Source: a virus
Strand: one strand, 5' to 3'
DNA: 64,000 nucleotides
IMG/VR virus record: IMGVR_UViG_3300011013_000008
Location: 22,123-86,122 of that record
Shown: positions 1,069 through 3,971 of the stretch, piece by piece
Layout of the letters: each line of letters opens with the position of its first letter
Numbering within the stretch: position 1 is the stretch's first letter
The notes under the pieces: generated by a model
Database searches by the model: none
The model's input: only the letters and a program-made list of their open reading frames with translations
Told to the model about the DNA's origin: nothing
Translations under genes and position numbers: made by a program

Positions 1069-1142
1069 GTACCATACAGTCATGGCGACGCGCAGCACTC
1101 CAAACGCTTGTGGAAGAGGTTTGATTCCTTTACGGGATGCCA
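1069..1142 (+). tRNA. degenerate tRNA-Trp(CCA)
   Basis: Anticodon loop CTCCAAA, T arm AGAGG-TTTGATT-CCTTT, ends GCCA; mismatches in acceptor and anticodon stems. Confidence 0.6.
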
Positions 1143-1210
1143 AATACGTGAAGTATTGAGTTTTATATTAAAAGTTTAATTTCACTCACAAGTACCAAAT
1201 TAAATTTATA

Positions 1211-1239
1211 TTGACATTTAGTCTAAATTCTGATATAAT
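1211..1239 (+). promoter_or_regulatory. sigma70 promoter
   Basis: TTGACA-17-TATAAT with extended -10 TG. Confidence 0.85.
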
Positions 1240-1263
1240 AGTTTTTTAAATGAGAGAAAATTA

Positions 1264-1425
1264 ATGAAGAAAGATTTACCTTATGATTTTGACTTATATT
1301 TTGACTTGAAGACCAAAGGTGAAGTCAAGAGGTATATTAAGTATCTGAAAGAACAAATAAAACAAATTCCAGAGGATTTACAATTTCTACTAGCTCTAGT
1401 AGAGAAACACAATATAAAGCTATAG
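1264..1425 (+). CDS. hypothetical protein (53 aa)
   Basis: ATG downstream of the promoter, open to TAG. Confidence 0.55.
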   Translation: MKKDLPYDFDLYFDLKTKGEVKRYIKYLKEQIKQIPEDLQFLLALVEKHNIKL

Positions 1426-1464
1426 AAAGACTGTAGTTAATCAAATTCATTAGAGGAGTTCTAT
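1418..1464 (+). promoter_or_regulatory. hairpin-linker-RBS leader of nadM (candidate riboswitch, copy 1)
   Basis: Stem AGCTATAG/CTGTAGTT with AAAGA loop, then GAGGAGTTCTAT before ATG. Confidence 0.4.
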
Positions 1465-2493
1465 ATGAGTCAAACAAAATTCGATATAGCTGTCGTTATA
1501 GGCAGATTTCAAGTTCCACATCTGGGGCATCATAAACTAATACAAGAAGCAGCAAGAATAGCAGATAAAGTAGTAATTATAATTGGTTCTGTAGGGCAAC
1601 CGAGAACCCCTAAAAATCCTTTTACGTTTAAAGAACGTAAGGATATGCTAGAAAAAACAATCTCTAATTATATCAATTATGAAATTTTATCTGTTAGAGA
1701 TCAAAGATACAATCTACAACATTGGTTAGTAGATGTAGCTTATAAAGTTAATTCAACTACTAAATCATGGACAGATTACCCACCTTCGGTGGCTATAGTC
1801 GGTCATATTAAAGACGATAGTTCATTTTATCTAAAGATGTTTCCTCAGTGGACTTTTCATGAAATTGAAAATCATAAGGAGGTTAACTCTACAGATATCA
1901 GGGATCAATTATTTGAGGGCAGTAGTCCTTATGATATAGATCATATTGATTCTAAAGTATGTAACTATTTAGCCGGTTGGCAAATGACTGATACTTATCA
2001 TAATCTTAAAGAAGAGTATGAATTTATTAAAAAGTATAAGTCAGCTTATAAAGATTTGCCTTATCCGCCAATCTTTAGTACAGTTGATGCAGTAGTAACA
2101 CAAAGTGGACATATTCTTCTAGTAAAGAGAAAAGCAGCTCCTGGAAAGGGCTTGTGGGCACTACCTGGGGGTTTTATTGGGCAAAGTGAAACTATTGAAG
2201 ATGCTATGCTTAGGGAGCTAGTAGAAGAAACAAAAATTAAATTGCAAAAGATTATTCTGCAACGATCTATAACTAAGCAAAAAGTTTATGATGATCCTGA
2301 TCGATCATTAAGAGGTAGAACAATTACACATGCTTTTGCTATAGAACTAAGTGGAGATACTTTACCTAGAGTTAAGGGAAGTGATGATGCTGAAAAAGCT
2401 AAATGGTTTCCACTTAACGAAGTGTTCTCAATGGGCGAAAACATCTACGAGGATCATTTAAGTATAATATTGAATATTACTGGTGATCTCTAA
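1465..2493 (+). CDS. nadM: bifunctional NMN adenylyltransferase / ADP-ribose pyrophosphatase (NadM-Nudix)
   Basis: GRFQVPHLGH nucleotidyltransferase motif, KNPFT and NSTDIR; C-terminal Nudix box ALPGGF...RELVEET, DPDRSLRGRTITH and GSDDA. Confidence 0.93.
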   Translation: MSQTKFDIAVVIGRFQVPHLGHHKLIQEAARIADKVVIIIGSVGQPRTPKNPFTFKERKDMLEKTISNYINYEILSVRDQRYNLQHWLVDVAYKVNSTTKSWTDYPPSVAIVGHIKDDSSFYLKMFPQWTFHEIENHKEVNSTDIRDQLFEGSSPYDIDHIDSKVCNYLAGWQMTDTYHNLKEEYEFIKKYKSAYKDLPYPPIFSTVDAVVTQSGHILLVKRKAAPGKGLWALPGGFIGQSETIEDAMLRELVEETKIKLQKIILQRSITKQKVYDDPDRSLRGRTITHAFAIELSGDTLPRVKGSDDAEKAKWFPLNEVFSMGENIYEDHLSIILNITGDL

Positions 2494-2540
2494 TATAAAG
2501 GATAGACCTTTATAGACTAATTTAATATAGGAGTTTACTT
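2494..2540 (+). promoter_or_regulatory. H-type pseudoknot-like leader (candidate riboswitch, copy 2)
   Basis: Stem TATAAAG/CTTTATA; loop GATAGAC can pair with GTTTA overlapping the AGGAG RBS. Confidence 0.5.
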
Positions 2541-2762
2541 TTGAAGAAGTTAGACAAAACTCAAATAGCTAGATATAGTTTTGCAGAACCATTAGGTGAG
2601 GGTAATGAGCCAGTTGTTATAACTGTTTCCGATAAATGGATAGAACTTATGTACTATCCAGCTTGGAAAGAACGAATGATTAATGTTGGCAGAGGTCACT
2701 TAATTAGTTTAGAAAAATGTATAGAGGATTTTGTGACAGTAAACTGGGCACAAAAACTCTAA
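2541..2762 (+). CDS. hypothetical protein
   Basis: 73 aa ORF, TTG start after AGGAG. Confidence 0.65.
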   Translation: MKKLDKTQIARYSFAEPLGEGNEPVVITVSDKWIELMYYPAWKERMINVGRGHLISLEKCIEDFVTVNWAQKL

Positions 2763-2773
2763 AAATGAATAAT

Positions 2774-2850
2774 GCCCTGTTGGTCTAAATGGATAAGGCA
2801 ATAGACTTCTAATCTATACGATGCAGGTTCGAATCCTGTGCAGGGTGCCA
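2774..2850 (+). tRNA. tRNA-Arg(TCT)
   Basis: Acceptor GCCCTGT/GCAGGGT, anticodon arm ATAGA-CTTCTAA-TCTAT, T-loop TTCGAAT, CCA. Confidence 0.92.
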
Positions 2851-2873
2851 ATTAAAAGAGAAAATATAATATA

Positions 2874-2999
2874 ATGAAGTATAAAGCAGAAGCCGGTATG
2901 GCATTAGTATTTATAGCTACCATAGGACTTCAGGGTATCTGGAATGCCTTACTATTATTAGGTTTTATGTTAATAATGTGGGCTATACTTACAGCATAG
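2874..2999 (+). CDS. small membrane peptide (41 aa)
   Basis: MKYKAEAGMALVFIATIGLQGIWNALLLLGFMLIMWAILTA, strongly hydrophobic. Confidence 0.5.
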   Translation: MKYKAEAGMALVFIATIGLQGIWNALLLLGFMLIMWAILTA

Positions 3000-3417: not shown

Positions 3418-3971
3418 TTTATTTTACATCAGATATACACTTTTTTCATGAAAATATTCTAAAGTATCAAGAGTCTACTAGACCTTTTGATACAGTAGAG
3501 GAAATGAATGATTTTATTATTAGAAAGTGGAACAGAACAGTTACTAATAAGGATGAAATTTATGTTCTAGGCGATTTTGCTATGGGACATAAAGAAAAAG
3601 CTATTAAATTGATAAAAAAGCTAAATGGACATATTCACCTTATTCGTGGCAATCACGATCACTTTAGTAAAGAACAGGAAGCTGAAATTTTTAGTTCTGC
3701 ACAAGATTATAAAGTGCTAAGATATAATAAGGAAAGATTTGTACTATTTCACTACCCTATCCAAGAATGGGATAGGTGTTATTATGGAGATATGCATCTA
3801 CATGGCCATTCACATGGTAATCTAAAAGATATTAAGCCTAATAGGTTTGATATGGGTTGGGATATTCATAAAAGATTAGTTTCTATTGAAGAAGTTAAAA
3901 CATGGAGAGTTAATGAACACGTACCACAGCATGGTAATACTAGATCAAGAGATGGAACTTTACCCACATGA
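3414..3971 (+). CDS. calcineurin-like metallophosphoesterase
   Basis: SDIHF, LGDF, GNHD, HYP and HGHSH motifs. Confidence 0.88.
   Translation: MIYFTSDIHFFHENILKYQESTRPFDTVEEMNDFIIRKWNRTVTNKDEIYVLGDFAMGHKEKAIKLIKKLNGHIHLIRGNHDHFSKEQEAEIFSSAQDYKVLRYNKERFVLFHYPIQEWDRCYYGDMHLHGHSHGNLKDIKPNRFDMGWDIHKRLVSIEEVKTWRVNEHVPQHGNTRSRDGTLPT

Follow-up and report, generated by a model that had tools for sequence, protein, structure and literature searches.

Autogenous translational operators (T4 gene 43, E. coli thrS, the MS2 coat-protein hairpin) carry, just upstream of the Shine-Dalgarno (SD) sequence or covering it, a hairpin whose loop is sequence-specific, and a fixed loop on a stem of free sequence beside the SD is the signature of such protein-read elements. 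CsrA/RsmA proteins bind A(N)GGA in hairpin loops, and the guanidine-II (mini-ykkC) riboswitch consists of two small hairpins whose similar loops pair with each other. Here we analyse two short leaders on either side of nadM, the gene of a nicotinamide mononucleotide (NMN) adenylyltransferase fused to a Nudix domain, in 64,000 nucleotides (nt) of phage DNA (hereafter the window), the final 64 kb of the 86,122-bp IMG/VR record IMGVR_UViG_3300011013_000008 (C1:22123-86122). An earlier note on this DNA had proposed them as twin candidate NAD+ or NMN riboswitches, tentatively of the NAD+-II class. The known riboswitches for nicotinamide adenine dinucleotide (NAD) are rare and narrowly distributed (PMC7749635): the nadA motif (NAD+-I) is reported as limited to Acidobacteria, and the pnuC motif (NAD+-II), built of P1, P1a and a pseudoknot, is conserved at most positions but has a variable P1a loop; its ~130 representatives are confined to Streptococcus, where they commonly precede pnuC. 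A further type of phage intergenic module, the PeSL cassettes of T4-type phages, carries GC-rich (GGGG...CCCC) terminator stem-loops at or before a promoter, conserved in sequence within a phage and accompanying ORFans (PMC2839356).

Our comparisons show that a conserved, strand-specific RNA with two predicted hairpins, the second enclosing the SD and the start codon, directly precedes NAD-synthesis genes, and, judged from sequence, both intergenic regions flanking nadM are related copies of this leader. We lean, by a small margin over even chances, towards a fuller reading in which both regions belong to a widespread mRNA leader whose second hairpin (H2) would lower initiation and whose first hairpin (H1) would be recognised by a trans-acting, preferably protein, reader. 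With the NAD+-II class as described, the leader shares its shortness, its position before an NAD-related gene, an RBS (ribosome-binding site) that lies with the start codon in a structured region, and translation as the likely level of control; it differs in having two separate hairpins with free stems, a fixed pentaloop and no conserved pseudoknot, and in its occurrence before nadM, nadV and nadA in phages and Gram-negative bacteria. NAD+-I gave no Rfam hit, and its reported range excludes the phages and Proteobacteria in which the two-hairpin leader occurs. Like the autogenous operators, the leader has a loop-specific hairpin on a free stem near the SD, carried by the genes controlled, but it serves several enzymes, crosses phyla, has a second, SD-holding hairpin, and has a candidate reader only. 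The guanidine-II riboswitch is similar in its two small hairpins with conserved loops, free stems, a variable linker and a 3' hairpin next to the RBS, and differs in that the leader's two loops, AUAGA and GGAGU, are each rich in purines and lack complementarity. PeSL cassettes likewise bring promoter and stem-loop modules into phage intergenic regions but are not fixed-loop hairpins in NAD-gene leaders.

Since blastn against 50,697 phage records returned no close relative of this phage (only tRNAs and short pieces of nadM matched), covariation was drawn from distant NadM loci, first 4 and later 80 (of 501 identified) with a protein identity of 42-50%, which together make 84 phage loci and 540 kb. 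The covariance model R1 was built from the nadM leaders of 49 other phages, with the window left out, and the two-hairpin leader is defined by R1 and a second model, R2. Most of the distant loci show the same layout before nadM, namely H1, a short linker and H2, often with a sigma-70-like promoter and a TAAATA box, and in most relatives H1 lies in the 5' untranslated region, downstream of the promoter. In a MAFFT alignment of 49 non-redundant leaders, again without the window, 81.0% of the cells pair, versus 53.6% in shuffles (a level reached by 0 of 500) and 34-41% with slid partners; changes on both sides are seen at 8 of 8 pairs in H1 and 5 of 7 in H2. Pair 9-17, for example, is AU in 25 leaders, CG in 12, GC in 11 and UA in 1, and never unpaired. 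A larger alignment of 117 sequences reaches 83.1% pairing, a value that leans towards the model to which the alignment was fitted. Covariation among phage nadM leaders, which the earlier note had named as a check, is present in the H1 stem.

While the stem of H1 differs from lineage to lineage, its pentaloop is fixed as A-N-R-G-A and its closing pair is G-C, rarely C-G or A-U. Among 56 sequences of <65% identity, the loop reads A1 in 56, U2 in 46, A3 in 54, G4 in 56 and A5 in 56, with a closing G in 50, and the information content of the loop columns (1.06-2.0 bits) exceeds that of the stem columns (0.02-0.34 bits). The form GATAGAC accounts for 91 of 117 sequences, and GAAAGAC, the form of the copy upstream of nadM in the window, for 3 of 117 including the window, a rare but recurring variant. 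The linker is G-poor, about 6-16 nt long and has one conserved A (45/50), and the spacing between H1 and H2 varies from 6 to 24 nt. H2 presents the SD as a pentaloop (GGAGU, GGAUU or GGAGC) on 4-8 covarying pairs, with a 3' arm that abuts or includes the AUG. Leaving aside the SD and the start codon, near-invariant positions are confined to four bases of the loop, its closing pair and a single A in the linker.

Variants of H1 were also collected. A second class, with a C-G closing pair and the loop A-N-N-G-A (ATGGA, AGGGA, ACGGA, AAGGA or AGTGA), occurs in the nadV leaders of loci L022-L026, L030 and L084, in two bacterial metagenome-assembled genomes (MAGs; L129 and L152) and in Ralstonia phage RSP15 (L272), and in one phage clade the C-G-closed H1 stands before nadV and G-ACAGA-C in the nadM leader of the same phage. 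At L040:2900-2946, two H1-type hairpins stand in tandem before nadM, the second in place of H2 and with the SD in its 5' arm, which supports H1 as the recognised unit.

The association with genes is strict. Applied to both strands of the 84 phage loci, R1 yields 115 hits at E<=1, every one on the gene-sense strand and ending at the ATG that opens an open reading frame (ORF). By phmmer, 63 of these genes encode NadM and 40 NadV, and Pfam adds one NadV (L006:6508, NAMPT_N) and one NadA; of the other ten hits, eight precede small uncharacterised ORFs that separate the leader from nadM, one precedes a partial ORF (L064:5133) and one a 106-amino-acid (aa) ORF (L030:4262), the last following a weak R1 match with no aligned H1. 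Counted by locus, a match lies directly before nadM in 63 of 84, only elsewhere in 11 and nowhere in 10, and by eye these last ten have variant loops or a C-G closing pair. The small ORFs between leader and nadM, which had no significant Pfam match and imply that it is the operon's first cistron that the leader controls, are found in L052, L057 and L063 (108 aa), L049 and L060 (118 aa), L014, L054 and L064 (117-124 aa, with a common G[IT]WR..GED motif) and L007 (152 aa, of unclear family membership).

In 80 bacterial NadM loci, we found 26 hits in 17 loci, all 26 on the sense strand and 24 of them before NadM, the first gene of the NadM operon, or NadV. The carriers are Campylobacterales MAGs, Methylomonas, Neptuniibacter, Oceanospirillum, Thiothrix, Thiolinea, Aestuariispira and a Rhodospirillales MAG. 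When 151 genomes of a single bacterial order were scanned blind, two hits at E<=0.05 appeared, one lying before NadV, the other before NadM; the genome-wide bacterial scan has low sensitivity, as it scored 38 candidates per genome and missed the leaders of G001 (23 and 19 bits). A strict hairpin rule (a pentaloop of the form A..GA, borne by 5 or more contiguous pairs and located 18-75 nt upstream of a start) separates the same genes: in the phage loci it is satisfied at 31/74 NadM and 24/55 NadV starts versus 8/706 other ORF starts, and in the bacterial loci at 9/80 NadM and 10/25 NadV starts versus 5/867 others. An example in culture is Rhodobacter phage RcXuper (L269; host R. capsulatus), which has canonical leaders at 2447-2500 before nadM (37.9 bits) and at 3695-3748 before nadV (36.5 bits). 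In two bacterial genomes, a ~260-aa Nudix-like ORF lies beside a leader-bearing nadM and is transcribed divergently from it (G133:C13:36643-37134 and G013:C78:14936-15385, minus strand). If, as is possible, it encodes a regulator of the NrtR type, transcriptional and RNA-level control may coexist.

In the window, R1 recovers the two leaders that the earlier note had pointed out, with the following elements:

1416-1470, plus strand: leader copy 1, complete; end-to-end match to R1, 41.6 bits, E 8.8e-7 over the window
1418-1438, plus strand: H1 of copy 1; stem 1418-1425 / 1431-1438, 8 pairs including 2 G-U; pentaloop AAAGA at 1426-1430; closing pair G-C
1445-1470, plus strand: H2 of copy 1; inner stem TAGA 1451-1454 / TCTA 1460-1463; SD loop GGAGT at 1455-1459
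2492-2546, plus strand: leader copy 2; R1 match of 26.2 bits, E 0.0016 over the window; canonical H1, poor H2
2494-2514, plus strand: H1 of copy 2; stem 2494-2501 / 2507-2514, 8 Watson-Crick pairs; pentaloop ATAGA at 2502-2506; closing pair G-C
2529-2543, plus strand: SD AGGAG (2529-2533) and TTG start (2541) of a 73-aa ORF (ORF73); no stable local hairpin

The loop of copy 1 runs into a C, giving AAAGAC, and is followed by a 12-nt linker with no G (1439-1450), AGGAGTT at 1454-1460 and the ATG at 1465; the outer pairs of its H2 place this ATG (1465-1467) in the stem. Copy 2 has the commonest loop form of the family, a 13-nt linker with one G (2515-2527) and AGGAGTT at 2529-2535, and 2 of the 7 pairs of its H2 are non-standard. 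Folded alone, H1 reaches -6.6 kcal/mol in copy 1 and -4.0 kcal/mol in copy 2 (z -3.6 and -2.3), values equalled by 2 and 4 of 200 shuffles, respectively. Both motifs are common by themselves in the 64 kb, AGGAGTT with 8 occurrences on the plus and 7 on the minus strand and A[TA]AGAC with 41 and 30, but across all 86,122 bp of the genome these two hairpins alone combine an A[TA]AGA loop with closure by G-C and a stem of 6 or more pairs; a third hairpin of 8 pairs, located outside the window, has T-A as its closing pair. The next R1 match in the window after the two copies scores 13.5 bits with filters off, and the whole genome holds no further match at E<=1. The sequence confirms the hairpin with its A(T/A)AGAC loop, the linker and AGGAGTT in both regions, as well as the earlier proposal that the two leaders are related and form a real, conserved cis-element tied to NAD-salvage genes.

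A twin function of the two copies, as had been supposed, is not supported. Sequestration of the RBS holds for copy 1: in a comparison of 77 candidate gene starts (median -0.7 kcal/mol), the region from -22 to +8 around the nadM start ranks fourth, with a folding energy of -5.5 kcal/mol. It fails for copy 2, where the ORF73 start folds at -0.8 kcal/mol, rank 35 of 77. Copy 1 stands directly before an NAD-synthesis gene; copy 2, with its decayed H2, precedes a gene without a link to NAD. The position of copy 2, directly after nadM, is the usual one of nadV leaders in relatives, and it is most simply seen as a leftover or re-used leader of the nadV type. Both copies are intercistronic, with the upstream stop codon inside the 5' arm of H1 (that of a 53-aa ORF, 1423-1425, in copy 1) or abutting H1 (that of nadM, 2491-2493, in copy 2), so that ribosomes terminating there must open H1.

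The earlier note also proposed pairings that would join H1 to the SD region: TAGAC (2503-2507) with GTTTA (2533-2537) as an H-type pseudoknot in copy 2, and ATAGAA (1422-1427) with TTCTAT (1459-1464) in copy 1. The complementarities are there, the first as 5 contiguous pairs (one G-U) and the second within a 7-pair match, but neither is supported by the family. Between the H1 loop and the stretch from SD to start, the longest possible helix averages 4.20 pairs versus 3.71 ± 0.10 in mononucleotide shuffles, a small excess that arises because the U-rich 3' arms face a purine loop. At least 5 contiguous loop pairs are possible in 25 of 57 non-redundant leaders and fewer than 5 in the other 32 (the window copies have 3 and 5), and in the 25 the partner site is inconstant: 16 place it in the 3' arm of H2, and most of the others in the linker. 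In a subset of the nadV leaders, the loop GATAGAC and the H2 3' arm GTTTATC match at 7/7 positions. The family comparison does not support a loop-arm pseudoknot, as a clade with the same H2 carries the H1 loops ATGGA, AGGGA, ACGGA, AAGGA and AGTGA, which are unable to pair, and as the ACAGA clade has CAAAT as its 3' arm of H2. For the copy 1 idea, in which the H1 5' arm would compete for that 3' arm, we found no enrichment (4.37, with 4.25 ± 0.08 for permuted pairs and 4.24 ± 0.11 for shuffles) and rejected it.

Taken together, the leader probably sets the amount of enzyme translated. In the mechanism that we favour, H2 would lower translation initiation, H1 would serve as the recognition hairpin, and the trans-acting reader of H1, for which a protein, perhaps NadM itself, is preferred over a metabolite, would set the level of expression; in this phage, copy 1 would control nadM from inside the operon. 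The fixed loop on a free stem, the variable spacing between H1 and H2 and the lack of a conserved junction form a protein-like signature. NadM-Nudix is the only candidate reader present in every leader-bearing genome examined, most loci having been found by a NadM search, and none of the loci examined came from a leader-bearing genome without NadM, which is a weak test given that they were mostly NadM-seeded. A viral scan seeded with NadV returned a single clade (77-100% identity) with NadM in 28 of 28 long records, and could not test for leaders without NadM.

Several observations weigh against this reading. 1) NadM is not known to bind RNA. 2) The phage and bacterial loci were collected via NadM, so that co-occurrence is built in, and NadM and NadV in any case co-occur in 94% of phages according to a preprint (10.1101/2024.02.11.579819). 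3) In 63 of the 80 bacterial NadM loci no leader was found, and NadM therefore does not need it. 4) Vibrio phage KVP40, a studied phage with the NARP2 pathway, lacks a canonical leader: its natV and nadV (L267:1434-1497 and L268:1437-1500) score 14.7 and 10.2 bits and have no canonical H1, and a similar hairpin with the SD in its loop stands just before the start codon in both. 5) Copy 2 precedes a gene without an NAD link, the leader is absent from 9 of 9 viral loci with ORF73 homologues, and this copy may be without function. 6) A distribution across several bacterial classes and phages with many different hosts is also consistent with a self-contained riboswitch.

There is also a broader possibility, which we hold to be tentative and clearly short of even: the leader would be a self-contained sensor of the NAD state, with H1 bound either directly by a metabolite of the NAD pathway or by NadM-Nudix in a metabolite-dependent manner. 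Its specifically RNA-based form, a new riboswitch class other than NAD+-II in which the leader itself binds NAD+, NMN, ADP-ribose, nicotinamide or phosphoribosyl pyrophosphate (PRPP) and so alters access to the SD and start codon in H2, appears rather unlikely. It would account for the ties to three different NAD-synthesis enzymes (NadM, NadV and NadA), for invariant nucleotides combined with an SD-holding hairpin as expression platform, and for a portability across phages of many hosts, Campylobacterales, Gamma- and Alphaproteobacteria that is typical of self-contained riboswitches, and the narrow range described for the known classes (PMC7749635) leaves a gap that it could fill. The near-invariant positions, however, offer little from which to build a selective pocket, the C-G-closed class varies at the second and third loop positions, conservation extends to no internal loop, junction or partner for a pseudoknot, the spacing ranges from 6 to 24 nt, and complementarity between H1 and the SD region is as slight and inconstant as described above.

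Two further explanations are improbable, to about the same degree. The first takes the hairpins for sites of a global host regulator of the CsrA/RsmA type, one of them over the SD. Like CsrA/RsmA operators, the leader pairs two purine-pentaloop hairpins ~25 nt apart, one of which holds the SD, and the minority H1 class C-A-N-G-G-A-G, of the C-G-closed loci listed above, matches the CsrA-type motif. The main loop, AUAGA (91/117), nevertheless lacks GGA, as do both window loops (AAAGA and ATAGA), the element is limited to NAD genes and does not mark a broad regulon, and this phage has no CsrA gene. The second sees a structural element without a dedicated reader that happens to accompany these genes, for example a terminator or a hairpin for mRNA stabilisation or processing. 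Both window copies are intercistronic, just after a stop codon, a common place for protective and processing hairpins, and copy 2 precedes a gene unrelated to NAD; against this, a loop that stays invariant across phyla while its stem varies freely calls for recognition by sequence, neither 1418-1438 nor 2494-2514 has a U-tract or was called as a terminator, H1 belongs to the 5' untranslated region in most relatives, and the association with genes is strict.

As for the class named by the earlier note, membership in NAD+-II (pnuC motif) with an H-type pseudoknot occluding the RBS has next to no chance of being correct: a compact leader before an NAD gene, the 5-pair complementarity of copy 2 and the 7/7 match in a subset of nadV leaders speak for it, but the conservation pattern is the reverse of that of the pnuC motif, whose reported range is Streptococcus (PMC7749635), fewer than 5 contiguous complementary bases are available in 32 of 57 leaders, clades with the arm CAAAT or the loops ATGGA, AGGGA or ACGGA cannot pair, and no Rfam 15 match was obtained at E<=10. 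At this threshold, searches of window positions 1100-2900 and 1405-1480 and of the leader of the best-scoring relative returned nothing or noise (snoRNA, miRNA, lncRNA and nuoG models, 10-21 bits), and scans at the gathering thresholds of the window and 20 related loci returned only tRNAs and two GOLLD RNAs; whether Rfam 15 includes models of the pnuC and nadA motifs was not checked for either search.

We found no description of the two-hairpin leader in the literature searched, nor a discussion of how phages control their NAD-rebuilding enzymes; in the NARP preprint (10.1101/2024.02.11.579819), the words 'untranslated' and 'riboswitch' are absent. NARP2, which combines NadV with an NMN adenylyltransferase, is a recently recognised phage counter to NAD-depleting bacterial immunity, and dedicated post-transcriptional control is suggested by a conserved, portable RNA of ~55 nt that directly precedes nadM, nadV and nadA in many phages and in the chromosomes of several classes of bacteria. 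Were the leader a sensor of the NAD state, phages and some bacteria would restrict translation of the NAD-rebuilding enzymes to times of NAD destruction, as brought about, for example, by defence systems that deplete it. A metabolite reader would make it a third NAD-related riboswitch class and extend NAD-responsive RNAs well beyond two rare classes; NadM as the reader would be the first RNA-binding, self-regulating NMN adenylyltransferase and a new case of an enzyme acting as regulator. RcXuper on R. capsulatus is a usable cultured experimental pair, and the leader is small enough for bench work.

The two copies lie in a short gene cluster, the other features of which are:

1211-1239, plus strand: predicted sigma-70-type promoter TTGACA-17-TATAAT; consensus match 12/12, TG before the -10 element
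1264-1425, plus strand: 53-aa uncharacterised ORF (ORF53); no Pfam and no PHROG match
1465-2493, plus strand: nadM, 342 aa, NMN adenylyltransferase fused to a Nudix domain; Pfam PF01467 and PF00293, PHROG 395
2541-2762, plus strand: ORF73, 73 aa, TTG start; member of an uncharacterised small-protein family
2774-2850: tRNA-Arg, downstream of ORF73

The promoter probably drives ORF53, nadM and ORF73, and the intergenic regions flanking nadM measure 39 nt upstream and 47 nt downstream. Compared with annotated phage NadM genes, the encoded protein has 40-46% identity among the 40 records listed and <60% in all 487. The genome record has a G+C content of 33% and direct terminal repeats, despite which CheckV estimates its completeness at 77%. 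Neither tblastn, nor Pfam PF04095, nor a NadV profile that does detect the NadV of KVP40 found a NadV/Nampt gene anywhere in it. With NadM-Nudix and no NadV found, this phage, as far as its sequence goes, runs against the published statement that every phage with NadM also has NadV (PMC9503650).

ORF73 belongs to a widespread family of 60-130 aa proteins with 316 representatives at E<=0.001, whose consensus includes TVSE, YYPxW and CIEDFxxVNWA, and by sequence it is not an NAD gene. The idea that it is an N-terminal remnant of nadV was rejected, as it has this conserved family of its own. Profile searches of Pfam, PHROGs and the PDB gave no match, close patterns gave nothing in two metagenome scans and one viral scan, and the ESM Atlas returned only scores of 0.80 or less; a looser profile retrieved 9 viral loci, in 0 of which a leader, NadM, NadV or another NAD gene is nearby.

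Other RNAs were also recorded. The two GOLLD RNAs (RF02032; 219 and 205 bits) lie at L017:6369-6803 and L046:5510-5955, 1.5-2.5 kb downstream of nadM, and are followed by tRNA genes. In the window itself, ARAGORN calls a tRNA-Asp with an unusual anticodon (atc) at 796-871, where the Rfam tRNA model scores below threshold.

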